A stretch of DNA of 64,000 bases from Escherichia coli (GTDB lineage: Bacteria > Pseudomonadota > Gammaproteobacteria > Enterobacterales > Enterobacteriaceae). The stretch is taken from NCBI RefSeq assembly GCF_013122565.1, contig NZ_CP053258.1; one strand, written 5' to 3'. This document shows positions 2,731 through 57,224 of the stretch, piece after piece. Each line of letters opens with the position of its first letter. The stretch's first letter is position 1. The position numbers were made by a program, and so were the translations under genes. The notes below the pieces were generated by a model. It did no database searches, was not told the DNA's origin, and saw only the letters and a program-made list of their open reading frames with translations.

Positions 2731-2748
2731 TTGCATAAAGGATGCCAG
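2731..2748 (-). promoter_or_regulatory. candidate sigma-54 (-24/-12) promoter for hyf operon
   Basis: minus strand reads CTGGCATCCTTTATGCAA (GG-N10-GC spacing) about 45 nt upstream of hyfA ATG; hyf operon is known to be sigma-54 dependent. Confidence 0.5.
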
Positions 2749-2942
2749 TCTGATTAATTTAATATATTCAATAAGTTATGAATTAACTGGATTCTGAACG
2801 GTACAAAAATGATGGTCATTAACGTTCAGCAAAAAATGGATTCGACACCCGTGTCGCAGGGGAAAGCGAGAATGTGATCTTGATCACGATAAGTGAAGTG
2901 TGCTGACCGCAAGCGCAGCCAGCACGGAATGGAGCAAAGTAA

Positions 2943-3985: not shown

Positions 3986-4130
3986 ACTGGTTATTCCTTT
4001 AAGGGGTGAGTTGTTCTTAAGGAAAGCATAAAAAAAACATGCATACAACAATCAGAACGGTTCTGTCTGCTTGCTTTTAATGCCATACCAAACGTACCAT
4101 TGAGACACTTGTTTGCACAGAGGATGGCCC

Positions 4131-5009
4131 ATGTTCACGGGAAGTATTGTCGCGATTGTTACTCCGATGGATGAAAAAGGTAATGTCTGTCGGGCTAGCT
4201 TGAAAAAACTGATTGATTATCATGTCGCCAGCGGTACTTCGGCGATCGTTTCTGTTGGCACCACTGGCGAGTCCGCTACCTTAAATCATGACGAACATGC
4301 TGATGTGGTGATGATGACGCTGGAGCTGGCTGACGGGCGCATTCCGGTGATTGCCGGAACCGGCGCTAACGCTACTGCGGAAGCCATTAGCCTGACGCAG
4401 CGCTTCAATGACAGCGGTATCGTCGGCTGCCTGACGGTAACCCCTTACTACAATCGTCCGTCGCAAGAAGGTTTGTATCAGCATTTCAAAGCCATCGCTG
4501 AGCATACTGACCTGCCGCAAATTCTGTATAATGTGCCGTCCCGTACTGGCTGCGATCTGCTCCCGGAAACGGTGGGCCGTCTGGCGAAAGTAAAAAATAT
4601 TATCGGAATCAAAGAGGCAACAGGGAACTTAACGCGTGTAAACCAGATCAAAGAGCTGGTTTCAGATGATTTTGTTCTGCTGAGCGGCGATGATGCGAGC
4701 GCGCTGGACTTCATGCAATTAGGCGGTCATGGGGTTATTTCCGTTACGGCTAACGTCGCAGCGCGTGATATGGCCCAGATGTGCAAACTGGCAGCAGAAG
4801 GGCATTTTGCCGAGGCACGCGTTATTAATCAGCGTCTGATGCCATTACACAACAAACTATTTGTCGAACCCAATCCAATCCCGGTGAAATGGGCATGTAA
4901 GGAACTGGGTCTTGTGGCGACCGATACGCTGCGCCTGCCAATGACACCAATCACCGACAGTGGTCGTGAGACGGTCAGAGCGGCGCTTAAGCATGCCGGT
5001 TTGCTGTAA
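4131..5009 (+). CDS. dapA: 4-hydroxy-tetrahydrodipicolinate synthase
   Basis: 292 aa from [19 protein letters not shown]...; ORF-track start 4113 is a 6-codon extension. Confidence 0.95.
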
Positions 5010-25485: not shown

Positions 25486-27765
25486 ATGGATGACCAGTTA
25501 AAACAAAGTGCACTTGATTTCCATGAATTTCCAGTTCCAGGGAAAATCCAGGTTTCTCCAACCAAGCCTCTGGCAACGCAGCGCGATCTGGCGCTGGCCT
25601 ACTCACCAGGCGTTGCCGCACCTTGTCTTGAAATCGAAAAAGACCCGTTAAAAGCCTACAAATATACCGCGCGCGGTAACCTGGTGGCGGTGATCTCTAA
25701 CGGTACGGCGGTGCTGGGGTTAGGCAACATTGGCGCGCTGGCAGGCAAACCGGTGATGGAAGGCAAGGGCGTTCTGTTTAAGAAATTCGCCGGGATTGAT
25801 GTATTTGACATTGAAGTCGATGAACTCGACCCGGACAAATTTATTGAAGTCGTCGCTGCGCTCGAACCGACCTTCGGCGGAATCAACCTCGAAGACATTA
25901 AAGCGCCAGAATGTTTCTATATTGAACAGAAACTGCGCGAGCGGATGAATATTCCGGTATTCCACGACGATCAGCACGGCACGGCAATCATCAGCACTGC
26001 CGCCATCCTCAACGGCTTGCGCGTGGTGGAGAAAAACATCTCCGACGTGCGGATGGTGGTTTCCGGCGCGGGTGCCGCAGCAATCGCCTGTATGAACCTG
26101 CTGGTCGCGCTGGGGCTGCAAAAACATAACATCGTGGTTTGCGATTCAAAAGGCGTTATCTATCAGGGCCGTGAGCCAAACATGGCGGAAACCAAAGCCG
26201 CATATGCGGTGGTGGATGACGGTAAACGTACCCTCGATGATGTAATTGAAGGTGCGGATATTTTCCTCGGCTGTTCCGGCCCGAAAGTGCTGACCCAGGA
26301 AATGGTGAAGAAAATGGCTCGGGCACCAATGATCCTGGCGCTGGCGAATCCGGAACCGGAAATTCTGCCGCCGCTGGCGAAAGAAGTGCGTCCGGATGCC
26401 ATCATTTGCACCGGTCGTTCTGACTATCCAAACCAGGTCAACAACGTCCTTTGCTTCCCGTTTATCTTCCGTGGCGCGCTGGACGTTGGCGCAACGGCTA
26501 TCAATGAAGAGATGAAACTGGCGGCAGTACGCGCGATTGCGGAACTGGCCCACGCCGAACAGAGCGAAGTGGTGGCTTCTGCGTATGGCGATCAGGATCT
26601 TAGCTTTGGCCCTGAATACATCATTCCAAAACCGTTCGATCCGCGCTTGATCGTTAAGATCGCTCCTGCGGTCGCGAAAGCGGCGATGGAGTCGGGCGTG
26701 GCGACGCGTCCGATTGCTGATTTCGACGTCTACATCGACAAGCTGACTGAGTTCGTTTACAAAACCAACCTGTTTATGAAGCCGATTTTCTCCCAGGCTC
26801 GCAAAGCGCCGAAGCGCGTAGTTCTGCCGGAAGGGGAAGAGGCGCGCGTTCTGCATGCCACTCAGGAACTGGTAACGCTGGGACTGGCGAAACCGATCCT
26901 TATCGGTCGTCCGAACGTGATCGAAATGCGCATTCAGAAACTGGGCTTGCAGATCAAAGCGGGCGTTGATTTTGAGATCGTCAATAACGAATCCGATCCG
27001 CGCTTTAAAGAGTACTGGACCGAATACTTCCAGATCATGAAGCGTCGCGGCGTCACTCAGGAACAGGCGCAGCGGGCGCTGATCAGTAACCCGACAGTGA
27101 TCGGCGCGATCATGGTTCAGCGTGGCGAAGCCGATGCAATGATTTGCGGTACGGTGGGTGATTATCATGAACATTTTAGCGTGGTGAAAAATGTCTTTGG
27201 TTATCGCGATGGCGTTCACACCGCAGGTGCCATGAACGCGCTGCTGCTGCCGAGTGGTAACACCTTTATTGCCGATACATATGTTAATGATGAACCGGAT
27301 GCAGAAGAGCTGGCGGAGATCACCTTGATGGCGGCAGAAACTGTCCGTCGTTTTGGTATTGAGCCGCGTGTTGCTCTGTTGTCGCACTCCAACTTTGGTT
27401 CTTCTGACTGCCCGTCGTCGAGCAAAATGCGTCAGGCGCTGGAACTGGTCAGGGATAGTGCGCCAGATCTGATGATTGATGGTGAAATGCACGGCGATGC
27501 AGCGCTGGTGGAAGCGATTCGCAATGACCGTATGCCGGACAGCCCTTTGAAAGGTTCCGCCAATATTCTGGTAATGCCAAACATGGAAGCTGCCCGCATT
27601 AGTTACAACTTACTGCGCGTTTCCAGCTCGGAAGGTGTGACTGTCGGTCCGGTGCTGATGGGCGTGGCGAAACCGGTTCACGTGTTAACGCCGATCGCAT
27701 CGGTACGTCGTATCGTCAACATGGTGGCGCTGGCCGTGGTTGAAGCGCAAACCCAACCGCTGTAA
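25486..27765 (+). CDS. maeB: NADP-dependent malic enzyme (malic enzyme plus phosphotransacetylase-like domain)
   Basis: 759 aa, [27 protein letters not shown]. Confidence 0.96.
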
Positions 27766-27815: not shown

Positions 27816-28055
27816 GCTGCAATATATTAGTAAAGCTTATTACTGAGTTTACGAATAATAAAAAAAGCAATATAAAATATCTCGATATTATTTTATTTAT
27901 ATTCATGCGTCGCATATGAAAGTTTATTCATAACAGTAAATATCTCTCCATTCTTAGTGATCTACCTCACCTTTTAAACGTGCTTGCCGAATTTTGTTAT
28001 TTACTCTGACGAAAAATTGTCACGATACACGAAAGTTTTTCACAGGCGGCGACTC

Positions 28056-28391
28056 ATGGATAAAGAACGCATCATTCAGGAATTTGTGCCCGGCAAACAG
28101 GTCACACTGGCGCATCTCATCGCGCATCCCGGCGAGGAACTGGCGAAGAAAATCGGCGTTCCGGATGCTGGCGCAATCGGCATTATGACGTTAACTCCTG
28201 GCGAAACGGCGATGATCGCCGGTGATTTAGCACTGAAAGCCGCCGATGTGCATATCGGTTTTCTCGACCGTTTTAGCGGCGCGCTGGTGATTTATGGCTC
28301 GGTGGGTGCAGTAGAAGAAGCGTTATCACAAACCGTCAGTGGTTTAGGTCGCTTATTAAATTATACGCTTTGTGAAATGACCAAAAGTTAA
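28056..28391 (+). CDS. eutS: ethanolamine-utilisation microcompartment shell protein EutS (permuted BMC domain)
   Basis: 111 aa from [26 protein letters not shown]. Confidence 0.9.
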
Positions 28392-28403
28392 TACGAGGCA
28401 TTC

Positions 28404-28883
28404 ATGAAACGAATTGCGTTTGTGGGTACCGTCGGGGCAGGGAAAACAACGTTATTTAATGCGTTGCAGGGGAATTATACCCTCGCCAGAAAAACACAGG
28501 CCGTGGAATTTAATGATAAGGGCGATATTGATACGCCGGGTGAATATTTTAGCCATCCCCGCTGGTATCACGCCTTAATTACCACGCTACAGGATGTGGA
28601 CATGCTGATCTATGTCCACGGCGCGAATGACCCGGAAAGTCGGTTGCCTGCCGGGTTGCTGGATATTGGCGTCAGCAAACGGCAAATCGCCGTCATCAGT
28701 AAAACGGACATGCCAGATGCTGACGTCGCCGCAACGCGAAAGTTATTGCTTGAGACGGGCTTCGAAGAGCCGATTTTCGAGCTAAACAGCCACGACCCGC
28801 AAAGCGTGCAGCAACTGGTGGATTATCTGGCATCTCTCACCAAACAGGAGGAAGCAGGTGAAAAAACTCATCACAGCGAATGA
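28404..28883 (+). CDS. eutP: ethanolamine-utilisation protein EutP (P-loop GTPase-like acetate kinase)
   Basis: 159 aa, MKRIAFVGTVGAGKTTLFNAL Walker A. Confidence 0.92.
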   Translation: MKRIAFVGTVGAGKTTLFNALQGNYTLARKTQAVEFNDKGDIDTPGEYFSHPRWYHALITTLQDVDMLIYVHGANDPESRLPAGLLDIGVSKRQIAVISKTDMPDADVAATRKLLLETGFEEPIFELNSHDPQSVQQLVDYLASLTKQEEAGEKTHHSE

Positions 28884-29547
28884 TATTCGTGAAGCACACG
28901 CGCGTGGCGAACAGGCAATGTCCGTGGTTCTGCGCGCCAGCATTATTACCCCGGAAGCCCGTGAAGTGGCGGACCTGCTGGGTTTTACCATCACTGAATG
29001 CGAGGAATCGACACCAGCAACGGTATCTGTGCCCGTAGAGAAAACCGAAAGCCAGCGCATCCGCGAAACCATCATTGCCCAGCTGCCGGAAGGCCAGTTT
29101 ACCGAAAGCCTGGTCGCGCAGTTGATGGAAAAAGTGATGAAGGAAAAACAGTCGCTGGAGCAGGGTGCAATGCAGCCGAGCTTTAAATCGGTGACCGGCA
29201 AAGGCGGCATCAAAGTTATTGATGGTAGCAGCGTCAAGTTTGGTCGCTTTGATGGCGCACAACCGCATTGCGTGGGCTTGACTGATCTTGTGACCGGAGA
29301 CGACGGCAGCAGCATGGCCGCCGGTTTTATGCAGTGGGACAACGCCTTCTTCCCGTGGACCCTGAACTACGACGAAATCGACATGGTGCTGGAAGGGGAG
29401 CTGCATGTTCGCCACGAAGGCGAAACCATGATCGCCAAAGCAGGCGACGTGATGTTTATCCCGAAAGGCTCCAGCATCGAATTTGGTACGACATCCAGCG
29501 TGAAATTCCTGTATGTCGCCTGGCCGGCTAACTGGCAATCCCTATGA
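28858..29547 (+). CDS. eutQ: ethanolamine-utilisation protein EutQ (cupin-type acetate kinase)
   Basis: 229 aa, MKKLITANDIREAHARGEQAMSVVL; overlaps eutP by 26 nt. Confidence 0.9.
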   Translation: MKKLITANDIREAHARGEQAMSVVLRASIITPEAREVADLLGFTITECEESTPATVSVPVEKTESQRIRETIIAQLPEGQFTESLVAQLMEKVMKEKQSLEQGAMQPSFKSVTGKGGIKVIDGSSVKFGRFDGAQPHCVGLTDLVTGDDGSSMAAGFMQWDNAFFPWTLNYDEIDMVLEGELHVRHEGETMIAKAGDVMFIPKGSSIEFGTTSSVKFLYVAWPANWQSL

Positions 29548-30347
29548 AAGATTTCATCACCGAAGCATGGCTAAGAGCGAACCATACGCTCAGCGAAGGC
29601 GCAGAGATCCATCTCCCTGCGGACAGTCGCCTGACGCCCTCTGCCCGGGAGTTGCTGGAAAGCCGCCATCTGCGCATCAAGTTTATTGACGAGCAGGGCC
29701 GCCTGTTTGTTGACGATGAACAGCAGCAGCCGCAGCCCGTTCATGGGCTGACCAGTAGCGATGAACATCCGCAGGCGTGCTGCGAACTGTGCCGCCAGCC
29801 GGTGGCAAAAAAGCCGGATACGCTGACTCACCTGTCGGCGGAAAAAATGGTCGCCAAAAGCGATCCGCGCCTGGGTTTTCGCGCGGTTCTCGACAGCACC
29901 ATTGCGCTGGCAGTGTGGCTGCAAATTGAACTGGCAGAACCGTGGCAGCCATGGCTGGCGGACATCCGCTCGCGTCTTGGCAACATTATGCGTGCCGATG
30001 CGCTGGGGGAACCGTTGGGCTGCCAGGCGATTGTCGGGCTTTCTGACGAAGATCTGCATCGGCTTTCTCACCAGCCGCTGCGCTATCTCGACCACGATCA
30101 TCTGGTGCCGGAAGCCAGCCACGGGCGCGATGCTGCGTTGCTGAATCTGCTACGCACCAAAGTGCGGGAAACCGAAACCGTAGCGGCGCAGGTGTTTATC
30201 ACCCGCAGCTTTGAAGTATTACGCCCGGACATCTTGCAGGCGCTGAACCGCCTTTCGAGCACGGTCTACGTGATGATGATCCTGAGCGTAACGAAGCAGC
30301 CGCTAACGGTGAAGCAGATCCAACAACGACTGGGGGAAACGCAATGA
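29544..30347 (+). CDS. eutT: ethanolamine-utilisation cobalamin adenosyltransferase EutT
   Basis: 267 aa, [32 protein letters not shown]; ATGA overlap with eutQ. Confidence 0.92.
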
Positions 30348-31360
30348 TTATTGAACGTTGTCGTGAACTGGCGTTGCGAGCGCCCGCCAGAGTGGTTTTT
30401 CCGGATGCGTTAGATCAACGTGTGCTGAAAGCTGCGCAATATTTACATCAACAAGGTCTGGCAACGCCCATTCTGGTCGCTAATCCGTTTGAACTTCGTC
30501 AGTTTGCGCTCAGTCATGGCGTAGCGATGGACGGGCTACAGGTGATTGATCCGCATGGCAACCTCGCAATGCGGGAAGAATTTGCTCATCGCTGGCTGGC
30601 CCGCGCGGGCGAAAAAACGCCGCCGGATGCGCTGGAAAAACTTACCGATCCGCTGATGTTCGCCGCCGCAATGGTCAGCGCCGGTAAAGCGGATGTCTGT
30701 ATCGCGGGCAATCTCTCTTCCACGGCGAATGTGCTGCGTGCCGGATTACGCATTATTGGCTTGCAGCCAGGCTGTAAAACGCTCTCATCCATTTTCCTGA
30801 TGCTGCCACAGTACAGCGGTCCGGCGTTGGGTTTTGCCGATTGCAGCGTGGTGCCACAGCCGACGGCGGCACAACTGGCGGATATCGCGCTTGCCAGCGC
30901 CGAAACCTGGCAGGCCATCACCGGAGAAGAACCGCGCGTGGCGATGCTGTCGTTTTCCAGCAATGGTAGCGCCCGTCACCCCTGCGTTGCCAACGTCCAG
31001 CAGGCGACAGAAATCGTCCGTGAGCGCGCACCAAAGCTGGTTGTCGATGGCGAGTTGCAGTTTGACGCCGCCTTCGTGCCGGAAGTGGCGGCGCAAAAAG
31101 CGCCTGCCAGCCCGCTACAAGGCAAAGCCAATGTGATGGTTTTTCCGTCGCTGGAGGCAGGAAATATTGGCTACAAAATCGCACAACGACTCGGCGGATA
31201 TCGTGCCGTCGGGCCATTGATACAAGGGCTTGCCGCGCCGATGCACGATCTCTCTCGTGGTTGTAGCGTGCAGGAAATTATCGAGCTGGCGCTGGTGGCA
31301 GCTGTGCCGCGTCAGACAGAAGTGAACCGCGAAAGCAGTTTACAAACACTGGTTGAATGA
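30344..31360 (+). CDS. eutD: phosphotransacetylase EutD (EutI)
   Basis: 338 aa, [34 protein letters not shown]. Confidence 0.93.
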
Positions 31361-31398
31361 ACGGTCCCGTTCTGGACCCTGATAAAGAGGAAAGCACA

Positions 31399-31692
31399 AT
31401 GGAAGCATTAGGAATGATCGAAACCCGGGGCCTGGTTGCACTGATTGAGGCTTCTGACGCGATGGTGAAAGCTGCGCGCGTCAAGCTGGTTGGTGTTAAG
31501 CAGATTGGCGGCGGCCTGTGTACTGCCATGGTTCGTGGTGATGTTGCAGCCTGTAAAGCAGCGACCGATGCCGGTGCCGCAGCGGCACAGCGTATCGGCG
31601 AGCTGGTATCTGTACACGTTATCCCGCGTCCGCACGGCGACCTGGAAGAAGTGTTCCCGATCGGCCTGAAAGGCGATAGCAGCAACCTGTAA
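31399..31692 (+). CDS. eutM: microcompartment major shell protein EutM (BMC-H)
   Basis: 97 aa from [28 protein letters not shown]. Confidence 0.93.
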
Positions 31693-31798
31693 TCACCCTG
31701 TGTGACGTCGATTCGGGCGTCACGCTCTCTCATTTTTCATTTTACCTTCCGCGGAGGGTAGGGGGAGCTTTTACCTGAAATACGCCACGGAGGCGGGT

Positions 31799-32086
31799 AT
31801 GAAACTGGCAGTCGTCACTGGACAAATTGTTTGTACCGTACGCCATCACGGACTGGCGCATGACAAATTGCTGATGGTGGAAATGATTGATCCACAAGGT
31901 AATCCTGACGGGCAATGCGCCGTCGCCATCGACAATATTGGCGCGGGAACCGGGGAGTGGGTGTTGCTGGTGAGTGGCAGTTCTGCCCGCCAGGCGCATA
32001 AAAGCGAAACGTCACCGGTCGATCTGTGCGTGATTGGCATCGTCGATGAGGTGGTGTCTGGCGGTCAGGTAATTTTCCACAAATAA
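31799..32086 (+). CDS. eutN: microcompartment vertex protein EutN (BMC-P)
   Basis: 95 aa, MKLAVVTGQIVCTVRHHGL. Confidence 0.92.
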   Translation: MKLAVVTGQIVCTVRHHGLAHDKLLMVEMIDPQGNPDGQCAVAIDNIGAGTGEWVLLVSGSSARQAHKSETSPVDLCVIGIVDEVVSGGQVIFHK

Positions 32087-32097
32087 GGCAGAACATC

Positions 32098-33501
32098 ATG
32101 AATCAACAGGATATTGAACAGGTGGTGAAAGCGGTACTGCTGAAAATGCAAAGCAGTGACACGCCGCCCGCCGCCGTTCATGAGATGGGCGTTTTCGCGT
32201 CCCTGGATGACGCCGTTGCGGCAGCCAAAATTGCCCAGCAAGGGTTAAAGAGCGTGGCAATGCGCCAGTTAGCCATTGCTGCCATTCGTGAAGCAGGCGA
32301 AAAACACGCCAGAGATTTAGCGGAACTTGCCGTCAGTGAAACCGGTATGGGCCGCGTTGAAGATAAATTTGCCAAAAACGTCGCTCAGGCGCGCGGCACG
32401 CCAGGCGTTGAGTGCCTCTCTCCGCAGGTGCTGACCGGTGACAACGGCCTGACTTTAATTGAAAACGCGCCCTGGGGCGTGGTGGCTTCGGTAACGCCGT
32501 CCACAAACCCGGCGGCAACCGTAATTAACAACGCCATCAGCCTGATTGCCGCGGGCAACAGCGTCATTTTTGCCCCGCATCCGGCGGCGAAAAAAGTCTC
32601 CCAGCGGGCGATCACGCTGCTCAACCAGGCGATTGTTGTCGCAGGCGGGCCGGAAAACTTACTGGTTACTGTGGCAAATCCGGATATCGAAACCGCGCAA
32701 CGTTTGTTCAAGTTTCCGGGCATCGGCCTTCTGGTGGTGACCGGCGGCGAAGCGGTAGTCGAAGCGGCGCGTAAACACACCAATAAACGTCTGATTGCCG
32801 CAGGCGCTGGCAACCCGCCGGTAGTGGTGGATGAAACCGCTGACCTCGCCCGTGCTGCTCAGTCCATCGTCAAAGGCGCGTCTTTCGATAACAACATCAT
32901 TTGTGCCGACGAAAAGGTACTGATTGTTGTTGATAGCGTAGCCGATGAACTGATGCGTCTGATGGAAGGCCAGCACGCGGTGAAACTGACCGCCGAGCAG
33001 GCGCAGCAGCTGCAACCGGTGTTGCTGAAAAATATCGACGAGCGCGGAAAAGGTACCGTCAGCCGTGACTGGGTTGGTCGCGATGCGGCGAAAATCGCGG
33101 CGGCAATCGGCCTGAACGTGCCGCAAGAAACGCGTTTGCTGTTTGTGGAAACCACCGCAGAACATCCGTTTGCTGTGACTGAACTGATGATGCCGGTGCT
33201 GCCCGTCGTGCGCGTCGCCAACGTGGCGGATGCCATTGCGCTGGCGGTGAAACTGGAGGGCGGTTGCCACCACACGGCGGCAATGCACTCGCGCAACATC
33301 GAAAACATGAACCAGATGGCGAACGCCATTGATACCAGCATTTTCGTTAAGAACGGACCGTGCATTGCCGGGCTGGGGCTGGGCGGGGAAGGCTGGACCA
33401 CCATGACCATCACCACGCCAACCGGTGAAGGGGTAACCAGCGCGCGGACGTTTGTCCGTCTGCGTCGCTGTGTATTAGTCGATGCGTTTCGCATTGTTTA
33501 A
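32098..33501 (+). CDS. eutE: CoA-acylating acetaldehyde dehydrogenase EutE
   Basis: 467 aa, MNQQDIEQVVKAVLLKMQSSDTPPAAVHEMGVF. Confidence 0.95.
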   Translation: MNQQDIEQVVKAVLLKMQSSDTPPAAVHEMGVFASLDDAVAAAKIAQQGLKSVAMRQLAIAAIREAGEKHARDLAELAVSETGMGRVEDKFAKNVAQARGTPGVECLSPQVLTGDNGLTLIENAPWGVVASVTPSTNPAATVINNAISLIAAGNSVIFAPHPAAKKVSQRAITLLNQAIVVAGGPENLLVTVANPDIETAQRLFKFPGIGLLVVTGGEAVVEAARKHTNKRLIAAGAGNPPVVVDETADLARAAQSIVKGASFDNNIICADEKVLIVVDSVADELMRLMEGQHAVKLTAEQAQQLQPVLLKNIDERGKGTVSRDWVGRDAAKIAAAIGLNVPQETRLLFVETTAEHPFAVTELMMPVLPVVRVANVADAIALAVKLEGGCHHTAAMHSRNIENMNQMANAIDTSIFVKNGPCIAGLGLGGEGWTTMTITTPTGEGVTSARTFVRLRRCVLVDAFRIV

Positions 33502-33511
33502 GGAGTAACCG

Positions 33512-34348
33512 ATGGCGCATGACGAACAATGGCTCACCCCACGTCTGCACATAGCGGCAACGCTGTGTAACCAGACGCCCGCCGCGACGGAATCCCCGCT
33601 GTGGCTGGGGGTGGATCTGGGCACCTGCGATGTGGTGTCGATGGTTGTCGACCACGACGGTCAGCCGGTGGCGGTATGCCTCGACTGGGCCGATGTGGTC
33701 CGCGACGGCATCGTCTGGGATTTCTTCGGTGCGGTCACCATTGTTCGTCGCCATCTCGACACCCTTGAGCAGCAATTCGGTCGCCGTTTTAGCCATGCGG
33801 CGACTTCATTTCCTCCGGGTACGGACCCGCGTATTTCCATCAACGTGCTGGAATCAGCCGGACTGGAAGTGAGCCATGTGCTGGATGAGCCAACCGCAGT
33901 CGCGGATCTGCTGCAACTGGATAACGCCGGTGTAGTGGATATCGGCGGCGGCACCACCGGCATTGCCATCGTGAAAAAGGGCAAGGTGACGTACTCGGCG
34001 GATGAAGCCACTGGCGGACATCACATCTCTCTGACTCTCGCCGGAAATCGTCGTATTTCGCTGGAAGAGGCGGAGCAGTACAAGCGCGGTCATGGTGAAG
34101 AGATTTGGCCCGCGGTGAAACCGGTGTACGAAAAAATGGCGGACATTGTCGCCCGGCATATTGAAGGGCAGGGCATTACTGATTTATGGCTGGCGGGCGG
34201 CTCCTGTATGCAACCGGGCGTGGCGGAACTGTTTAGCAAACAATTCCCGGCATTACAGGTGCATTTACCGCAGCACAGTTTGTTTATGACCCCGCTGGCG
34301 ATCGCCAGTAGTGGGCGAGAGAAAGCGGAGGGGATCTATGCAAAATGA
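33512..34348 (+). CDS. eutJ: ethanolamine-utilisation chaperone-like protein EutJ (actin/Hsp70 fold)
   Basis: 278 aa, MAHDEQWLTPRLHIAATLCNQ. Confidence 0.93.
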   Translation: MAHDEQWLTPRLHIAATLCNQTPAATESPLWLGVDLGTCDVVSMVVDHDGQPVAVCLDWADVVRDGIVWDFFGAVTIVRRHLDTLEQQFGRRFSHAATSFPPGTDPRISINVLESAGLEVSHVLDEPTAVADLLQLDNAGVVDIGGGTTGIAIVKKGKVTYSADEATGGHHISLTLAGNRRISLEEAEQYKRGHGEEIWPAVKPVYEKMADIVARHIEGQGITDLWLAGGSCMQPGVAELFSKQFPALQVHLPQHSLFMTPLAIASSGREKAEGIYAK

Positions 34349-35525
34349 ATTGCAGACCGCGCTCTTTCAGGCGTTCGATACCCTGAATCTGCAACGGGTA
34401 AAAACATTTAGCGTTCCACCGATGACGCTTTGCGGTCCGGGCGCGGTGAGCAGTTGTGGGCAGCAAGCGCAAACGCGTGGGCTGAAACATCTGTTCGTGA
34501 TGGCAGACAGCTTTTTGCATCAGGCGGGGATGACCGCCGGGCTGACGCGCAGCCTGGCCGTTAAAGGTATCGCCATGACGCTCTGGCCATGTCCGGTGGG
34601 CGAACCATGCATCACCGACGTATGTGCAGCCGTGGCGCAGCTGCGTGAATCAGGCTGTGACGGGGTGATCGCGTTTGGCGGCGGCTCGGTGCTGGATGCG
34701 GCGAAAGCCGTGGCGTTGCTGGTGACGAACCCCGATAGCACGCTGGCGGAAATGTCAGAAACCAGCGTTCTGCAACCGCGCCTGCCGTTGATTGCCATTC
34801 CAACGACCGCCGGAACCGGCTCTGAAACCACCAACGTAACGGTGATTATCGACGCGGTGAGCGAGCGCAAGCAGGTGTTAGCCCATGCCTCGCTGATGCC
34901 GGATGTGGCGATCCTCGACGCCGCATTGACCGAAGGTGTGCCGTCGCATGTCACGGCGATGACCGGTATCGACGCGTTAACTCATGCCATTGAAGCGTAC
35001 AGCGCGCTGAACGCCACACCGTTTACCGACAGTCTGGCGATTGGCGCTATTGCGATGATTGGCAAATCGCTGCCGAAAGCGGTGGGCTACGGTCACGACC
35101 TTGCCGCGCGCGAGAGCATGTTGCTGGCTTCATGTATGGCGGGAATGGCGTTTTCCAGTGCGGGGCTTGGGGTATGCCACGCGATGGCGCATCAGCCGGG
35201 GGCGGCGCTGCATATTCCGCACGGTCTGGCGAACGCCATGCTACTGCCAACGGTGATGGAGTTTAACCGGATGGTCTGTCGCGAACGCTTTAGTCAGATT
35301 GGTCGGGCACTGCGAACTAAAAAATCCGACGATCGTGACGCTATTAACGCGGTAAGTGAGTTGATTGCGGAGGTCGGGATCAACAAGCGGCTGGCAGACG
35401 TGGGCGCAACCACCGGACATTACGGCGCATGGGCGCAGGCCGCGCTGGAAGATATTTGTCTGCGCAGCAACCCGCGTACCGCCAGCCTGGAACAGATTGT
35501 CGGCCTGTACGCAGCGGCGCAATAA
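34338..35525 (+). CDS. eutG: iron-containing alcohol dehydrogenase EutG
   Basis: 395 aa from MQNELQTALFQAFDTLNLQRVKTF; overlaps eutJ 3' end. Confidence 0.9.
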   Translation: MQNELQTALFQAFDTLNLQRVKTFSVPPMTLCGPGAVSSCGQQAQTRGLKHLFVMADSFLHQAGMTAGLTRSLAVKGIAMTLWPCPVGEPCITDVCAAVAQLRESGCDGVIAFGGGSVLDAAKAVALLVTNPDSTLAEMSETSVLQPRLPLIAIPTTAGTGSETTNVTVIIDAVSERKQVLAHASLMPDVAILDAALTEGVPSHVTAMTGIDALTHAIEAYSALNATPFTDSLAIGAIAMIGKSLPKAVGYGHDLAARESMLLASCMAGMAFSSAGLGVCHAMAHQPGAALHIPHGLANAMLLPTVMEFNRMVCRERFSQIGRALRTKKSDDRDAINAVSELIAEVGINKRLADVGATTGHYGAWAQAALEDICLRSNPRTASLEQIVGLYAAAQ

Positions 35526-35526
35526 A

Positions 35527-35611
<85 letters not shown>

Positions 35612-35641
35612 ATAAATAACAACTAACAGGGAGTAAAGGCG

Positions 35642-36868
35642 ATGGGAATTAACGAAATCATCATGTACATCATGATGTTCTTTATGCTGATAGCTGCCGT
35701 AGACAGGATCCTGTCGCAGTTCGGCGGTTCTGCTCGTTTCCTCGGTAAGTTCGGTAAAAGTATCGAAGGATCAGGCGGTCAGTTCGAAGAAGGCTTTATG
35801 GCAATGGGCGCTCTGGGTCTGGCGATGGTCGGTATGACCGCGCTGGCACCGGTACTGGCTCACGTACTCGGGCCGGTAATTATCCCGGTTTACGAAATGC
35901 TCGGCGCAAACCCGTCAATGTTCGCCGGAACGCTGCTGGCGTGCGATATGGGCGGCTTCTTCCTCGCCAAAGAGCTGGCGGGCGGCGACGTAGCAGCGTG
36001 GCTATACTCTGGGTTAATTCTCGGGTCGATGATGGGGCCAACGATTGTGTTTTCCATTCCGGTGGCGCTCGGCATTATCGAACCTTCTGACCGTCGTTAT
36101 CTGGCGCTCGGCGTGCTGGCGGGCATTGTGACCATTCCGATTGGTTGTATCGCTGGTGGTCTGGTAGCTATGTACTCCGGTGTTCAGATCAACGGCCAGC
36201 CGGTGGAATTCACTTTCGCCCTGATCCTGATGAACATGATCCCGGTGATCATTGTTGCGATTCTGGTGGCGCTGGGGCTGAAATTCATCCCGGAAAAAAT
36301 GATCAACGGCTTCCAGATCTTCGCCAAATTCCTCGTTGCATTGATCACCCTCGGTCTTGCCGCTGCGGTAGTGAAATTCCTGCTTGGCTGGGAACTGATC
36401 CCCGGTCTGGATCCTATCTTTATGGCCCCTGGCGATAAACCCGGTGAGGTGATGCGCGCCATTGAAGTTATCGGTTCTATCTCCTGCGTGCTGTTAGGGG
36501 CGTATCCGATGGTGCTGCTGCTGACCCGTTGGTTTGAAAAACCGCTGATGAGCGTCGGTAAAGTGCTGAATATGAACAACATCGCGGCAGCCGGCATGGT
36601 GGCAACGCTTGCCAACAACATCCCGATGTTCGGCATGATGAAGCAGATGGATACCCGCGGCAAAGTCATCAACTGCGCCTTCGCCGTTTCCGCTGCTTTC
36701 GCCCTGGGCGACCACTTAGGCTTCGCCGCTGCCAACATGAACGCCATGATTTTCCCGATGATTGTCGGCAAGTTGATCGGCGGCGTAACGGCGATTGGCG
36801 TGGCGATGATGCTGGTGCCAAAAGAAGACGCGACCGCGGCTAAAACCGAAGCGGAGGCACAATCGTGA
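35642..36868 (+). CDS. eutH: ethanolamine permease EutH
   Basis: 408 aa, MGINEIIMYIMMFFMLIAAVDRIL, polytopic membrane protein. Confidence 0.95.
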   Translation: MGINEIIMYIMMFFMLIAAVDRILSQFGGSARFLGKFGKSIEGSGGQFEEGFMAMGALGLAMVGMTALAPVLAHVLGPVIIPVYEMLGANPSMFAGTLLACDMGGFFLAKELAGGDVAAWLYSGLILGSMMGPTIVFSIPVALGIIEPSDRRYLALGVLAGIVTIPIGCIAGGLVAMYSGVQINGQPVEFTFALILMNMIPVIIVAILVALGLKFIPEKMINGFQIFAKFLVALITLGLAAAVVKFLLGWELIPGLDPIFMAPGDKPGEVMRAIEVIGSISCVLLGAYPMVLLLTRWFEKPLMSVGKVLNMNNIAAAGMVATLANNIPMFGMMKQMDTRGKVINCAFAVSAAFALGDHLGFAAANMNAMIFPMIVGKLIGGVTAIGVAMMLVPKEDATAAKTEAEAQS

Positions 36869-38268
36869 ACACTCGCCAGCTACTGAGCGTCGGTATCGAT
36901 ATCGGCACTACCACCACCCAGGTGATCTTCTCCCACCTGGAGCTGGTTAACCGTGCGGCGGTGTCGCAGGTGCCGCGCTACGAATTCATCAAACGCGAAA
37001 TTAGCTGGCAAAGCCCGGTGTTCTTTACCCCTGTCGATAAACAGGGTGGTTTAAAAGAAGCGGAACTGAAAACCTTAATCCTCGAGCAATATCAGGCTGC
37101 GGGCATTGCGCCGGAAAGCGTTGATTCTGGTGCCATCATCATCACCGGTGAAAGCGCGAAAACCCGCAATGCTCGCCCGGCGGTGATGGCGCTCTCCCGG
37201 TCGCTGGGCGATTTTGTCGTCGCCAGCGCCGGGCCGCATCTCGAATCCGTGATCGCCGGTCACGGTGCCGGGGCGCAAACCCTTTCTGAACAACGGCTGT
37301 GTCGGGTCCTGAATATCGATATCGGCGGTGGCACCGCGAACTACGCCCTGTTCGATGCCGGAAAAATCAGCGGTACTGCCTGCCTCAACGTCGGCGGTCG
37401 CCTGCTGGAAACCGACAGCCAGGGGCGCGTGGTTTACGCTCATAAACCGGGGCAGATGATTGTGGATGAGTGCTTCGGCGCAGGCACCGACGCCCGTTCG
37501 CTGACCGGCGCGCAGCTGGTGCAGGTTACCCGGCGGATGGCAGAGCTGATTGTCGAAGTGATTGACGGAACGCTTTCGCCGCTCGCGCAGGCATTAATGC
37601 AAACCGGTTTGCTGCCCGCAGGTGTTACGCCCGAAATCATTACGCTTTCTGGCGGCGTGGGCGAATGTTATCGCCACCAGCCCGCCGACCCGTTCTGTTT
37701 TGCCGATATTGGCCCGCTGCTGGCAACGGCGCTGCATGACCATCCGCGCCTGCGTGAGATGAACGTGCAGTTTCCGGCGCAAACCGTGCGTGCCACGGTG
37801 ATTGGCGCGGGGGCACATACCCTTTCGCTCTCTGGCAGCACAATCTGGCTTGAGGGCGTACAACTGCCGCTGCGCAATTTGCCGGTGGCGATCCCGATTG
37901 ATGAAACGGATCTGGTGGGTGCCTGGCAACAGGCGCTGATTCAGCTGGATCTTGATCCCAAAACTGACGCGTACGTGCTGGCGCTTCCCGCCTCGCTGCC
38001 TGTGCGTTACGCCGCGGTACTGACGGTCATCAACGCGTTGGTCGATTTCGTCGCGCGTTTTCCGAATCCGCATCCCCTGCTGGTGGTGGCCGGGCAGGAC
38101 TTTGGTAAAGCTCTGGGCATGTTGTTGCGCCCACAGCTACAACAACTCCCGTTGGCAGTCATTGACGAAGTGATTGTCCGCGCGGGGGACTATATCGACA
38201 TTGGTACGCCTCTTTTTGGCGGATCGGTTGTGCCGGTGACGGTGAAATCACTCGCATTTCCTTCCTGA
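36865..38268 (+). CDS. eutA: ethanolamine ammonia-lyase reactivating factor EutA
   Basis: 467 aa, MNTRQLLSVGIDIGTTTTQVIFSHLEL. Confidence 0.95.
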   Translation: MNTRQLLSVGIDIGTTTTQVIFSHLELVNRAAVSQVPRYEFIKREISWQSPVFFTPVDKQGGLKEAELKTLILEQYQAAGIAPESVDSGAIIITGESAKTRNARPAVMALSRSLGDFVVASAGPHLESVIAGHGAGAQTLSEQRLCRVLNIDIGGGTANYALFDAGKISGTACLNVGGRLLETDSQGRVVYAHKPGQMIVDECFGAGTDARSLTGAQLVQVTRRMAELIVEVIDGTLSPLAQALMQTGLLPAGVTPEIITLSGGVGECYRHQPADPFCFADIGPLLATALHDHPRLREMNVQFPAQTVRATVIGAGAHTLSLSGSTIWLEGVQLPLRNLPVAIPIDETDLVGAWQQALIQLDLDPKTDAYVLALPASLPVRYAAVLTVINALVDFVARFPNPHPLLVVAGQDFGKALGMLLRPQLQQLPLAVIDEVIVRAGDYIDIGTPLFGGSVVPVTVKSLAFPS

Positions 38269-38279
38269 GGGAACGACTT

Positions 38280-39641
38280 ATGAAACTAAAGACCACATTG
38301 TTCGGCAATGTATATCAGTTTAAGGATGTAAAAGAGGTGCTGGCTAAAGCCAACGAACTGCGTTCGGGGGATGTGCTGGCGGGCGTCGCAGCGGCAAGCT
38401 CACAGGAGCGCGTGGCGGCAAAGCAGGTGTTGTCGGAAATGACCGTAGCGGACATCCGCAATAATCCGGTGATTGCCTATGAAGATGACTGCGTGACGCG
38501 GCTGATTCAGGACGATGTTAACGAAACGGCCTACAACCAGATTAAAAACTGGAGCATCAGCGAACTGCGTGAGTATGTGCTGAGCGATGAAACCAGCGTG
38601 GACGACATTGCCTTTACCCGCAAAGGGCTGACCTCGGAAGTGGTCGCGGCGGTAGCGAAGATTTGCTCCAACGCGGACCTGATTTACGGCGCGAAGAAAA
38701 TGCCGGTAATCAAAAAGGCCAATACCACCATCGGTATTCCGGGCACCTTCAGCGCCCGTTTGCAGCCAAATGACACCCGTGACGACGTGCAAAGTATCGC
38801 CGCGCAAATCTACGAAGGGCTTTCCTTCGGGGTGGGCGATGCGGTGATCGGCGTTAACCCGGTGACTGACGACGTGGAAAACTTAAGCCGCGTGCTGGAC
38901 ACCATCTATGGCGTGATCGACAAATTCAACATCCCAACTCAGGGCTGCGTACTGGCGCACGTCACCACCCAGATCGAAGCGATTCGTCGCGGCGCGCCTG
39001 GCGGACTGATTTTCCAGAGTATCTGTGGCAGCGAAAAAGGGCTGAAAGAGTTTGGCGTGGAACTGGCGATGCTCGACGAAGCGCGCGCAGTGGGTGCAGA
39101 GTTCAACCGTATCGCCGGGGAAAACTGCCTCTACTTCGAAACCGGACAAGGTTCAGCGCTATCCGCTGGCGCTAACTTCGGCGCAGACCAGGTGACGATG
39201 GAAGCACGTAACTATGGGCTGGCGCGTCATTACGATCCGTTTATCGTCAACACCGTGGTCGGCTTTATTGGGCCGGAGTATCTCTACAACGACCGCCAGA
39301 TTATCCGTGCGGGCTTAGAAGATCACTTTATGGGCAAGCTGAGCGGCATCTCTATGGGCTGTGACTGCTGTTACACCAACCACGCTGACGCTGACCAGAA
39401 CCTCAACGAAAACCTGATGATCCTGCTCGCCACCGCAGGCTGCAACTACATCATGGGGATGCCGCTGGGTGATGACATCATGCTCAACTACCAGACCACC
39501 GCATTCCACGATACCGCCACTGTGCGTCAGTTACTCAACCTGCGCCCGTCACCGGAGTTTGAACGCTGGCTGGAAAGCATGGGCATTATGGCAAACGGTC
39601 GCCTGACCAAACGGGCGGGCGATCCGTCACTGTTCTTCTGA
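38280..39641 (+). CDS. eutB: ethanolamine ammonia-lyase large subunit EutB
   Basis: 453 aa, MKLKTTLFGNVYQFKDVKEVLAKANELRSGD; directly follows eutA. Confidence 0.96.
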   Translation: MKLKTTLFGNVYQFKDVKEVLAKANELRSGDVLAGVAAASSQERVAAKQVLSEMTVADIRNNPVIAYEDDCVTRLIQDDVNETAYNQIKNWSISELREYVLSDETSVDDIAFTRKGLTSEVVAAVAKICSNADLIYGAKKMPVIKKANTTIGIPGTFSARLQPNDTRDDVQSIAAQIYEGLSFGVGDAVIGVNPVTDDVENLSRVLDTIYGVIDKFNIPTQGCVLAHVTTQIEAIRRGAPGGLIFQSICGSEKGLKEFGVELAMLDEARAVGAEFNRIAGENCLYFETGQGSALSAGANFGADQVTMEARNYGLARHYDPFIVNTVVGFIGPEYLYNDRQIIRAGLEDHFMGKLSGISMGCDCCYTNHADADQNLNENLMILLATAGCNYIMGMPLGDDIMLNYQTTAFHDTATVRQLLNLRPSPEFERWLESMGIMANGRLTKRAGDPSLFF

Positions 39642-39661
39642 TGACGCGGAGATAACACATC

Positions 39662-40549
39662 ATGGATCAAAAACAGATTGAAGAAATTGTACGCAGCGTG
39701 ATGGCGTCAATGGGACAAGCGGCCCCCGCGCCGTCAGAAGCAAAGTGCGCCACTACCACCTGTGCGGCACCGGTGACCTCGGAAAGCTGCGCGCTGGATT
39801 TAGGTTCTGCGGAAGCAAAAGCGTGGATTGGTGTTGAAAACCCGCATCGCGCAGACGTATTAACAGAACTGCGCCGCAGCACCGTGGCCCGCGTTTGTAC
39901 CGGTCGTGCCGGTCCGCGTCCGCGTACCCAGGCGTTGCTGCGTTTCCTGGCCGATCACTCTCGTTCGAAAGATACCGTACTTAAAGAAGTGCCGGAAGAG
40001 TGGGTGAAAGCGCAGGGCTTGCTGGAAGTCCGCTCCGAAATTAGCGACAAAAATCTCTACCTGACTCGCCCGGATATGGGCCGCCGCCTGTGTGCAGAAG
40101 CTGTTGAAGCGCTGAAAGCACAGTGTGTTGCTAATCCGGACGTACAGGTCGTTATTTCTGATGGCCTGTCAACTGATGCCATCACCGTGAACTACGAAGA
40201 GATCCTGCCGCCGCTGATGGCGGGCCTGAAACAGGCCGGGCTGAAAGTCGGTACACCATTCTTTGTTCGTTATGGTCGCGTGAAGATTGAAGATCAGATC
40301 GGTGAGATCCTCGGCGCGAAAGTAGTGATCCTGCTGGTGGGCGAACGTCCGGGGTTGGGTCAGTCAGAAAGCCTCTCCTGCTACGCCGTTTACTCGCCGC
40401 GTATGGCGACCACCGTTGAGGCCGATCGCACCTGTATCTCTAACATTCACCAGGGCGGCACGCCGCCGGTTGAAGCCGCAGCCGTCATTGTGGATTTGGC
40501 GAAACGTATGCTGGAGCAGAAAGCATCCGGCATCAACATGACCCGATAA
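39662..40549 (+). CDS. eutC: ethanolamine ammonia-lyase small subunit EutC
   Basis: 295 aa, [24 protein letters not shown]. Confidence 0.95.
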
Positions 40550-40558
40550 GGAGGCATC

Positions 40559-41218
40559 ATGCCAGCTTTAGATTTGATTCGACCGTCTGTCACCGCTATG
40601 CGGGTGATTGCCTCCGTTAACGCCGATTTTGCGCGTGAACTGAAATTGCCGCCGCATATTCGTAGCCTCGGTCTGATTTCTGCTGATTCCGATGACGTCA
40701 CCTACATTGCCGCTGATGAAGCGACCAAGCAGGCGATGGTGGAAGTGGTGTATGGCCGCTCGCTGTATGCGGGCGCTGCACACGGCCCGTCACCGACTGC
40801 CGGTGAAGTGCTGATTATGCTTGGTGGGCCAAACCCGGCGGAAGTGCGTGCAGGTCTGGATGCGATGGTTGCGCATATTGAAAATGGCGCTGCTTTCCAG
40901 TGGGCTAATGATGCGCAAGATACGGCATTCCTGGCACATGTGGTTTCGCGTACCGGTTCTTATCTTTCATCAACCGCCGGGATCACGCTTGGCGATCCGA
41001 TGGCGTATCTGGTGGCACCGCCGCTGGAAGCGACCTACGGCATTGATGCAGCGTTGAAATCTGCCGACGTACAGCTGGTGACCTATGTCCCGCCACCGTC
41101 TGAAACTAACTACTCGGCAGCATTTTTAACCGGTAGCCAGGCAGCGTGTAAAGCGGCCTGTAACGCCTTTACCGATGCAGTGCTGGAAATCGCGCGTAAT
41201 CCAATCCAGCGTGCGTAA
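40559..41218 (+). CDS. eutL: microcompartment shell protein EutL (tandem BMC domain, trimer)
   Basis: 219 aa, [31 protein letters not shown]. Confidence 0.95.
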
Positions 41219-41230
41219 TGGAGGTTGCCG

Positions 41231-41731
41231 ATGATCAATGCACTGGGATTGCTGGAAGTGGACGGCATGGTCGCTGCGATAGATGCAGCGGATGCCATGC
41301 TCAAAGCAGCTAACGTTCGTCTGCTCAGTCACGAAGTGCTTGACCCTGGTCGCTTAACGCTGGTGGTGGAAGGCGATCTGGCGGCGTGTCGTGCTGCGCT
41401 GGACGCAGGTTGTGCTGCCGCGATGCGTACCGGGCGTGTCATCAGCCGCAAGGAGATCGGTCGGCCAGACGATGACACCCAGTGGCTGGTTACTGGCTTT
41501 AACCGCCAGCCGAAGCAACCCGTAAAGGAACCCGACGCGCCAGTTATCGTCGCGGAATCTGCTGACGAGTTGTTGGCGCTGTTAACATCAGTACGTCAGG
41601 GAATGACGGCAGGAGAAGTGGCTGCCCACTTTGGCTGGCCGCTGGAAAAAGCCAGAAATGCGCTCGAACAGCTCTTTTCTGCAGGGACGTTACGTAAACG
41701 CAGTAGTCGTTATCGTCTCAAGCCCCATTAA
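41231..41731 (+). CDS. eutK: microcompartment shell protein EutK (BMC domain plus C-terminal nucleic-acid-binding-like domain)
   Basis: 166 aa from MINALGLLEVDGMVAAIDAADAMLKAANV. Confidence 0.9.
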   Translation: MINALGLLEVDGMVAAIDAADAMLKAANVRLLSHEVLDPGRLTLVVEGDLAACRAALDAGCAAAMRTGRVISRKEIGRPDDDTQWLVTGFNRQPKQPVKEPDAPVIVAESADELLALLTSVRQGMTAGEVAAHFGWPLEKARNALEQLFSAGTLRKRSSRYRLKPH

Positions 41732-41776
41732 CCTGTCGGAGGTGCCGGGTGTCCTACAACACCCGGCATTAACATC

Positions 41777-42829
41777 ATGAAAAAGACCCGTACAGCCAAT
41801 TTGCACCATCTTTATCATGAACCCTTACCCGAAAACCTGAAGCTCACGCCGAAGGTCGAAGTGGATAATGTTCATCAACGACAGACAACGGATGTCTATG
41901 AACATGCTTTAACGATTACCGCCTGGCAGCAGATTTACGATCAGCTGCATCCGGGCAAGTTTCATGGTGAATTTACGGAAATTCTACTCGATGATATTCA
42001 GGTTTTTCGTGAATACACCGGTCTGGCGCTGCGTCAGTCGTGCCTGGTCTGGCCGAACTCGTTCTGGTTTGGCATTCCGGCGACGCGCGGTGAGCAGGGA
42101 TTTATCGGTTCGCAATGTCTGGGAAGCGCAGAAATAGCGACGCGCCCCGGTGGCACTGAGTTTGAATTAAGTACGCCGGACGATTACACGATCCTGGGCG
42201 TAGTGCTTTCTGAAGATGTCATCACCCGTCAGGCTAACTTTTTGCATAATCCGGATCGGGTATTACATATGCTGCGTAGCCAGTCGGCGCTGGAAGTGAA
42301 AGAGCAGCATAAAGCCGCGCTGTGGGGCTTTGTCCAACAGGCGCTGGCGACGTTTTGCGAGAACCCGGAAAATCTCCATCAGCCTGCAGTGCGAAAAGTG
42401 CTGGGGGATAATTTGCTCATGGCGATGGGGGCGATGCTGGAAGAAGCGCAACCAATGGTGACGGCGGAAAGCATCAGTCATCAGAGTTACCGTAGATTAC
42501 TTTCCCGCGCCCGTGAATATGTGCTGGAAAACATGTCCGAACCGGTGACGGTGCTGGATTTGTGTAATCAACTGCATGTCAGCCGCCGCACGCTACAAAA
42601 CGCGTTTCACGCTATTTTAGGCATTGGCCCGAACGCGTGGCTGAAACGCATTCGCCTGAACGCCGTACGCCGCGAACTGATAAGCCCGTGGTCGCAAAGC
42701 ACAACGGTAAAAGACGCCGCCATGCAGTGGGGATTCTGGCATCTGGGGCAATTTGCCACGGATTACCAGCAGCTGTTTTCCGAGAAGCCGTCGTTGACGT
42801 TGCATCAGCGGATGCGGGAATGGGGGTGA
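41777..42829 (+). CDS. eutR: AraC-family transcriptional activator of the eut operon EutR
   Basis: 350 aa, [26 protein letters not shown]; C-terminal AraC HTH. Confidence 0.93.
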
Positions 42830-44820: not shown

Positions 44821-45246
44821 ATGGAGATACGCGTATTTCGCCAGGAAGATTTCGAAGAGGTCATCACCCTTTGGGAACGTTGCGACTTGCTGCGTCCGTG
44901 GAACGATCCGGAAATGGACATCGAGCGTAAGATGAACCATGACGTCAGTTTGTTTTTGGTCGCTGAGGTGAACGGTGAAGTGGTCGGAACGGTGATGGGC
45001 GGTTATGACGGGCATCGCGGGTCTGCTTATTATCTTGGCGTGCATCCAGAGTTTCGTGGGCGTGGGATTGCCAATGCGTTGCTTAACCGGCTGGAGAAAA
45101 AGCTGATTGCTCGCGGCTGCCCGAAAATTCAGATCAACGTGCCGGAAGATAACGACATGGTGCTCGGAATGTATGAACGCCTGGGATATGAACACGCCGA
45201 CGTGCTGAGTCTGGGTAAGCGTTTGATTGAAGATGAAGAGTACTGA
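44821..45246 (+). CDS. ypeA: GNAT-family acetyltransferase YpeA
   Basis: 141 aa from [29 protein letters not shown]; ORF-track 37-codon extension rejected. Confidence 0.88.
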
Positions 45247-53088: not shown

Positions 53089-53391
53089 TTCACTTCTGTT
53101 TCCTCCCTGCATTTGTGGGGAGGATTTCGTCTTGAACTACGTTCACCAGGCTATTTTATTTGTCATTTTGGCCCCGGGCAGTGCTCGAAATCCTCACGTA
53201 CTATGTGTACGCCCCGGTTTCTCCGCGCTGTTCGTGTCCAAACTGACTGCAACAATTACGCCTGTTGAACCAAGTTCTTATTCCCTTTTCAACTTCCAAA
53301 TCACCAAACGGTATATAAAACCGTTACTCCTTTCACGTCCGTTATAAATATGATGGCTATTAGAAAGTCATTAAATTTATAAGGGTGCGCA

Positions 53392-57203: not shown

Positions 57204-57224
57204 TAGGTTGAGTGAATGTTAAAC

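Follow-up and report, generated by a model that had tools for sequence, protein, structure and literature searches.

Overlapping genes in bacterial operons

Start/stop overlaps between neighboring genes of an operon have been described in two kinds, short and long. At the short ones a ribosome that terminates on the upstream gene can reinitiate on the downstream gene. The commonest spacings are −4 and −1, and when five native −4 pairs of E. coli were put to the test, four proved to be coupled (PMC6728339). Coupling by reinitiation is efficient at spacings from −4 to +3 nt and drops with longer overlap. In one systematic study coupling was nil at −25 nt, a result obtained with synthetic constructs and reported in a review that stresses sequence context (PMC12548453). 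In E. coli, 707 of 2,987 unidirectional gene pairs (24%) have a spacing of −8 to +6 nt, another 7% fall in a '+10/11 nt' class, and short overlaps are enriched 4.5-fold in pairs that encode heteromeric complexes (PMC10666635).

The long overlaps belong to a phase-1 class (−8, −11, −14 nt, and so on) in which the upstream gene has lost its stop and is read through to a chance stop in the other frame. They persist because shortening to −4 or −1 is impossible, and they are typically without translational coupling (PMC10666635). An overlap between eutP and eutQ was noted in Salmonella enterica LT2 by Yang et al. (2025), whose deletion left eutQ codons 1-9 in place on account of their overlap with eutP. 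The N-terminus of EutQ, in the H1/H2 region, binds the microcompartment shell (PMC12487888).

Here we describe the overlaps of an E. coli segment that contains the eut and cys operons. We read them, with a probability of about 0.8, as ordinary intra-operon overlaps of the two kinds, the short ones competent for reinitiation and most of the long phase-1 ones probably with mainly de novo starts, eutQ being largely independent of eutP termination.

The window and its junctions

The window (the whole stretch of DNA that was analyzed, 64,000 nt) is an Escherichia chromosome segment. It runs from hyfB-hyfA and bcp-gcvR on the minus strand through dapA to maeB, the eut operon, hemF to murR, ucpA and cysPUWAM, and ends toward ptsI. 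The gene map is the RefSeq (PGAP) annotation of E. coli W5-6 transferred to the window, by which 58 genes were mapped. The junctions of that annotation are identical to those of the window and the ORFs at all named junctions are intact. The eut operon is complete, with 17 genes (eutSPQTDMNEJGHABCLKR) on the plus strand at 28056-42829, and cysPUWAM is found at 53392-58248.

Identity to complete E. coli genomes is 97.6-99%. Among 5,426 of these genomes the best identity is at most 97.6-97.7% for the eut (27900-31400) and cys (53000-57300) stretches and 99.0% for the hyf end (1-4200). By nucleotide identity, complete E. coli genomes seem to include no representative of the lineage, or of the recombinant segment, from which the window derives. 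Other features of the segment differ between strains. The eutA and eutB genes are adjacent, with an 11-nt spacer (38268-38280), so there is no prophage downstream of eutA in the window, unlike in E. coli K-12 BW25113 (PMC11334477). The maeB gene (25486-27765) is intact here and is annotated as frameshifted in E. coli W5-6. An IS3-family element, IS1397-type in E. coli annotation, lies between cysM and yfeS (58250-59900) with an orfA/orfB transposase pair (minus-strand ORFs at 59231-59761 and 58404-59126). It is not at the corresponding site in W5-6, and a REP-like inverted repeat (58303-58365) adjoins it. In IS3 elements orfB is normally made via a programmed −1 frameshift in the orfA/orfB overlap, which is another kind of overlap than the start/stop overlaps of the window's operons.

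A preliminary description of this DNA had listed ten start/stop overlaps. All ten are present with the lengths given there, as checked in the sequence, and a close E. coli relative has the same ones in its RefSeq annotation. They are given below with an eleventh; locus counts refer to the orthologous operons compared in a later section.

28858-28883, plus strand: eutP/eutQ overlap, 26 nt (sequence, matched in RefSeq)
29544-29547, plus strand: eutQ/eutT overlap, ATGA (sequence)
30344-30347, plus strand: eutT/eutD overlap, ATGA (sequence; −4 or −11 overlap in 50/51 loci)
34338-34348, plus strand: eutJ/eutG 11-nt overlap ATGCAAAATGA, GGAGG upstream (−11 in 35/46 loci)
36865-36868, plus strand: eutH/eutA overlap, GTGA, 4 nt (−4 in 36/43 loci)
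54406-54410, plus strand: cysP/cysU, TAATG, common base 54408 (sequence)
55239-55243, plus strand: cysU/cysW, TAATG, common base 55241 (sequence)
56106-56116, plus strand: cysW/cysA 11-nt overlap ATGAGCATTGA, AGGAGG upstream (sequence)
3411-3415, minus strand: gcvR stop and bcp start, TAATG, common base 3413 (sequence)
2066-2070, minus strand: hyfA stop and hyfB start, TAATG, common base 2068 (sequence)
45233-45246, plus strand: ypeA/yfeZ 14-nt overlap (RefSeq map; absent from the earlier list)

Two details of the earlier list change. The ATGA motif ascribed to three eut junctions is present at eutQ/eutT and eutT/eutD, but eutH/eutA has GTGA, and the GTG start of eutA is kept throughout Enterobacteriaceae. 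The 1-nt overlap listed as bcp/gcvR exists with the genes in the other order, since transcription runs from gcvR to bcp. Seven junctions carry a short motif, with one or four bases common to two genes on the same strand (eutQ/T, eutT/D, eutH/A, cysP/U, cysU/W, gcvR/bcp and hyfA/B). The 26-nt eutP/eutQ junction has no −4/−1 motif. The longer overlaps all have lengths that are 2 modulo 3: eutP/Q with 26 nt, eutJ/G and cysW/A with 11 nt each, and ypeA/yfeZ with 14 nt. The last is likewise of the phase-1 class, and the Shine-Dalgarno (SD) site of yfeZ is weak (−3.3 kcal/mol).

Frequency of the overlaps

The overlaps had been called extensive. Against chance they do stand out: 7 of the 26 pairs within 30 nt of each other are spaced at exactly −4 or −1 (p = 1.5e−5 under a flat null). 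Against the E. coli genome they do not. A spacing of −8 to +6 nt is found in 11 of the 43 same-strand pairs of the window, which matches the genome-wide 24% (p = 0.44), so the density is ordinary and 'extensive' amounts to normal. The overlaps of the window are real, non-random and wholly typical of E. coli.

Spacers of 9-12 nt separate the genes at six eut junctions (S/P, N/E, E/J, A/B, C/L and L/K, within 28392-41230). This class of +9 to +12 nt, at 6/43 pairs (14%), is in mild excess over the 7% found genome-wide (p = 0.07). The six spacers are highly conserved between genera, e.g., the A/B spacer is 11 nt in 30/42 loci.

Conservation in orthologous operons

A EutQ scan of species-representative genomes yielded 57 eut loci, from Escherichia to Pseudomonas and Telmatospirillum. 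The cross-genus comparison covered the eut and cys junctions, with six other genera for cys. These loci share phylogenetic history and are not independent, and homology to the window served to place their starts. At eutP/Q the genes overlap in 43/56 loci, by 23 nt in 25, by 26 nt in eight and by 4 nt in ten. At eutJ/G they overlap in 38/46 loci, mostly by 11 nt. By contrast, the −4 overlap at eutQ/T is found in only 19/53 loci, and most Citrobacter have a 9-nt spacer there. The proposed check of the overlaps in orthologous operons thus comes out in favor of conservation for most eut and cys junctions and against it for eutQ/eutT. At the seven eut junctions without an overlap in the window, the genes overlap in none or one of the 42-54 loci available for each. 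In the loci aligned here, overlap status is junction-specific and conserved in eut operons.

Some lineages have a spacer between eutP and eutQ. It measures +4 to +15 nt in Serratia, Morganella, Pluralibacter gergoviae and Intestinirhabdus, and within Serratia it is +4 in DD3 and +11 in H1w. A few loci look disrupted or rearranged. In Citrobacter koseri NCTC10786 the spacing is aberrant at nearly all eut junctions. In C. amalonaticus S646 eutP is truncated and lies 168 nt from eutQ. In the Yokenella locus and both Serratia loci, neither eutT nor eutD was matched where it would be expected.

The cys junctions are conserved as well. The layout of 1, 1 and 11 nt (P/U, U/W and W/A) is present in Kosakonia, Franconibacter, Pantoea and Winslowiella, and Buttiauxella and Klebsiella likewise retain the sequences of the cysU/W and cysW/A junctions. 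All six other genera have TAATG or TGATG at cysU/W, and all six have the identical 11-nt motif at cysW/A. Three database proteins of 444-490 aa (P0005, P0007 and P0038) appear as CysW-CysA fusions. The part that links CysW to CysA in them is what the cysA frame encodes ahead of the cysA ATG, and P0007 contains further frame errors. We rejected them as fusions; an indel or an assembly artefact close to the 11-nt overlap is the probable source.

Start codons

The overlaps had also been taken to support the internal start codons chosen for these genes. The starts hold up, on full-length matches to NCBIfam models, conserved N-termini and SD sites. The reasoning does not hold up; it is circular because an overlap exists only after the start has been chosen. 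Each of the ten downstream proteins matches a curated NCBIfam model over its full length, residue 1 falling on model position 1 or 2 (e.g., EutQ residues 1-229 on NF012001 positions 1-233, and EutG residues 1-395 on NF011998 positions 1-395). EutD is an exception, with residue 3 aligned to model position 2. In nine of the ten downstream genes the first start codon of the ORF is the one chosen. In eutG a longer GTG start at 34311 is possible, and the conserved start is the ATG at 34338.

The start of eutQ lies inside eutP, and three features define the overlap:

28846-28851, plus strand: SD site of eutQ, AGGAGG, within eutP and 6 nt upstream of the GTG (anti-SD pairing −10.3 kcal/mol)
28858-28860, plus strand: GTG start of eutQ (model match, conserved N-terminus)
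28881-28883, plus strand: TGA stop of eutP, made by eutQ Asn8-Asp9 (aaTGAt; sequence)

No start codon precedes the GTG at 28858-28860 in its ORF. GTG starts are less common, and there are in-frame candidates at +60 and +66. If eutQ started at one of these, i.e., at the ATG at 28918 or the GTG at 28924, there would be no overlap and the annotated one would be an artefact. The protein argues against this. EutQ residues 1-20 are conserved as protein while the DNA varies synonymously, and the curated EutQ model is matched from position 1. The N-terminus (M/V)KKLITANDIR is kept out to Pseudomonas and the alphaproteobacterium Telmatospirillum, in which eutQ starts with ATG and the junction is different. 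The strong SD site of eutQ is conserved at the correct spacing, and the +60 candidate is absent in several species. In Salmonella the EutQ N-terminal region is functionally required (PMC12487888). We exclude the +60 and +66 starts because of the N-terminal protein conservation, the N-terminus of the distant lineages and the conserved SD site, and consider an annotation artefact extremely improbable. For start-codon evidence on eutP/eutQ, our literature search gave only the remark in PMC12487888.

Short overlaps and reinitiation

From the operon structure, and from junctions that are too short for a promoter or terminator, we infer that the genes of each overlapping pair are on one transcript. 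For short overlaps in general, termination-reinitiation has the best support of any mechanism. At the short overlaps of the window a terminating ribosome would sit on the downstream start and could reinitiate there, and we infer that the downstream gene is translated partly or wholly in this way. Reinitiation would be most likely where the downstream SD site is poor, i.e., at eutT, and less so at cysU and cysW. The SD energies in the window are −10.3 kcal/mol for eutQ, −10.0 for eutG and −10.3 for cysA; they are −6.1 for cysU, −6.2 for cysW and −1.7 for eutT. The SD site of eutT varies with the junction. In the 19 loci with a −4 overlap eutT has no SD site (mean −1.7 kcal/mol), whereas in the 32 loci with a spacer of 4-13 nt it has one (mean −7.7 kcal/mol). 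On this pattern eutQ to eutT is plausibly the best coupling candidate in the window. It is also the cleanest natural test case because the SD site is absent where the genes overlap and present where they are spaced.

Coupling at the −1/−4 junctions is plausible. CysU, CysW and CysA are subunits of one ABC transporter, and cysU/W/A and hyfA/B encode subunits of heteromeric complexes. We found no coupling experiments (reporter or ribosome profiling) on any of the ten pairs in the literature searched, and a search on coupling in cysPUWA gave nothing.

Structure and origin of the eutP/eutQ overlap

The 26-nt overlap consists of eutQ codons 1-8 and two bases of codon 9. In the eutP frame it holds the last eight codons of that gene and the stop (G-E-K-T-H-H-S-E-stop). 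The two frames are conserved very differently. EutQ residues 1-9 are MKKLITAND in 30 of the 33 loci with a 23- or 26-nt overlap, and the synonymous sites of eutQ vary freely (AAA/AAG, CTC/CTT/CTA/TTA, ATC/ATT, ACA/ACC, GCG/GCT/GCC, AAT/AAC). This synonymous variation produces 12 different EutP tails over the 33 loci. The EutP domain (PF10662) covers residues 1-143 of 159, and the overlapping tail is outside it. The SD site of eutQ is conserved in the −23 and −26 lineages (mean −11.0). As far as these comparisons tell, selection at the overlap acts on the EutQ frame only and the EutP tail is unconstrained. The last eight eutP codons would be a tail that runs over the conserved, shell-binding N-terminus of EutQ.

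One synonymous substitution in eutQ separates the two lengths of the overlap. Where Ala7 is GCT and AAC or AAT (Asn8) comes next, as in the −23 lineages, a TAA stop arises for eutP (gcTAAc). With GCG or GCC at Ala7 this stop is gone, and eutP extends by one codon, to the TGA in AAT-GAT. The overlap is 26 nt with TGA here and 23 nt with TAA in Salmonella because Ala7 is GCG in the window instead of GCT. An earlier stop exists in relatives. In Pluralibacter gergoviae and Morganella EutP ends in ...SLDSQ*, 12 nt before eutQ, and where the EutP of P. gergoviae stops, that of the window reads on (...SLTKQ-EEAGEKTHHSE*). The junction thus has the marks of a phase-1 stop loss: a length of 2 modulo 3, an unselected tail, and relatives with an earlier eutP stop. 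In such pairs the upstream gene, with no stop before the downstream start, would read on in the other frame to the first chance stop. In the window's genes there is one off-frame stop per 19 codons or so, and the chance of a stop within nine codons is 0.38, so the 26-nt length carries no signal. The overlap of 23-26 nt is present in at least nine genera of Enterobacteriaceae, including Escherichia, Salmonella, Citrobacter and Klebsiella.

The frame of eutQ is +1 relative to eutP, and the overlap contains an A6 run (GTGAAAAAAC) with an SD site about 11 nt upstream. EutP and EutQ are both annotated as acetate kinases. These features would suit a programmed frameshift on the A-run that yields an EutP-EutQ fusion. 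In Klebsiella and other genera, however, a G interrupts the A-run (AAG AAA), and the −4 or spaced lineages have another frame relationship. EutP is cytosolic and EutQ is encapsulated in the microcompartment (PMC12487888), and no fusion-sized product has been reported. We rejected the frameshift because the A-run is not conserved, and give it a negligible chance.

Translation of eutQ

The overlaps had been called typical of tightly coupled operons. They are typical of operons, but tight coupling is least likely at eutP/eutQ. If all overlaps including this one reflected tight coupling, the ribosome of the upstream gene would pass on to the downstream gene at every junction. Several points agree with this. 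The overlaps are junction-specific and conserved, four of five native −4 pairs of E. coli were coupled in reporter assays (PMC6728339), and short overlaps are enriched 4.5-fold in heteromeric pairs (PMC10666635). Such pairs include cysU/W/A and hyfA/B. EutP/Q, Q/T, T/D, J/G and H/A, on the other hand, are not known to be heteromeric complexes, and the eutQ/eutT overlap occurs in only a minority of loci (19/53). At eutP/eutQ itself several points speak against handover. The longer the overlap, the less coupling there is, with none at −25 nt (PMC12548453), the SD site of eutQ is among the strongest in the window, and several lineages have dropped the overlap with the eutQ start and N-terminus unchanged.

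Protein levels bear on the same question. In E. coli K-12 grown on ethanolamine, EutQ was the most abundant Eut protein by iBAQ (set at 100) and EutP stood at 7 ± 1 (PMC11334477). EutQ at about 14 times EutP could not come from one-for-one reinitiation and would call for independent initiation, though the ratio is also affected by protein stability and iBAQ bias and is still compatible with some coupling. On these grounds tight coupling at the 26-nt eutP/eutQ overlap is improbable, and as an account of all the overlaps we regard it as unlikely.

Translation of eutP might also promote eutQ initiation without reinitiation, by opening an inhibitory mRNA structure. RNA unfolding of this type is established for other gene pairs (PMC12548453), and ribosomes on the 3′ end of eutP must cross the eutQ ribosome binding site (RBS). 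The predicted structure is uninformative on this point. In terms of predicted base-pair probabilities (−18 to +6, 100-nt context, 57 starts), the eutQ RBS has an unpaired probability of 0.47, which is the window average, and overlapping and other starts are alike (0.43 vs 0.48, p = 0.26). EutP is also translated far less than EutQ (PMC11334477), so few eutP ribosomes would be there to unfold anything. We consider this model decidedly unlikely.

A further idea is that the 23-26 nt overlap, the strong SD site and the weak GTG form a selected device that sets the EutQ:EutP ratio and are more than an accident that has been tolerated. Ribosomes at the end of eutP might, for example, briefly block the eutQ start or hand over to it. 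Were this true, the level of EutQ, a shell-cargo linker, would be tied to the flux through the first genes of the operon, and coupling would occur in an overlap so long that none is expected from current models. We see only a very slim chance of it.

In our preferred reading, translation of eutQ would begin at its own AGGAGG-GTG site and depend little on the termination of eutP, and EutQ could then greatly exceed EutP. The genes eutG and cysA, with similarly strong SD sites, are probably initiated mainly de novo as well. This would not extend to yfeZ.

Comparison with described systems

The overlaps of the window all fit described categories; they are already known and nothing in them is new in kind. 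They carry little weight beyond annotation quality, where the present check confirms the start codons of ten genes. A gene overlap is not equal to tight coupling. The short overlaps are reasonable reinitiation candidates, and for eutP/eutQ the better reading is that EutP has a passenger tail over a functionally important N-terminus of EutQ. For engineering of eut and for deletions of eutP or eutQ, it matters that the RBS and first eight codons of eutQ sit within eutP.

The short overlaps compare most directly with the reinitiation pairs at −4 (NTGA) and −1 (TAATG/TGATG), the motifs of which are identical in 7 of the window's 11 overlaps (Huber et al. 2019, PMC6728339, and 2023, PMC10666635; review by Brown and Wade 2025, PMC12548453). 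The window pairs lie inside known operons and their frequency equals the genome-wide figure for E. coli. Huber et al. (2019) tested one hyf pair, hyfHI (PMC6728339), while the pair in the window is hyfAB. Some downstream genes have no SD site (eutT) and others a strong one (eutA), so the pairs probably do not all depend on coupling to the same degree.

The longer overlaps resemble the phase-1 class (PMC10666635). Their lengths of 11, 11, 14 and 26 nt (23 in sister genera) are in phase, the eutP tail is unconstrained, and there are relatives whose eutP stops before eutQ. They differ from that class in their persistence. The 23-26 nt overlap is kept in at least nine genera, and the 11-nt overlaps of cysW/A and eutJ/G are almost invariant. 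Such near-invariance across genera points to a persistence beyond that of a purely transient accident, and the conserved eutP/eutQ overlap could be selected rather than tolerated.

The closest single case is the eutP/eutQ junction of Salmonella enterica LT2 (PMC12487888). It is the same gene pair, with the same GTG start and the same SD site as in the window. It differs in the end of eutP, with an overlap of 23 nt and a TAA stop in LT2 and an overlap of 26 nt and a TGA stop in the window.
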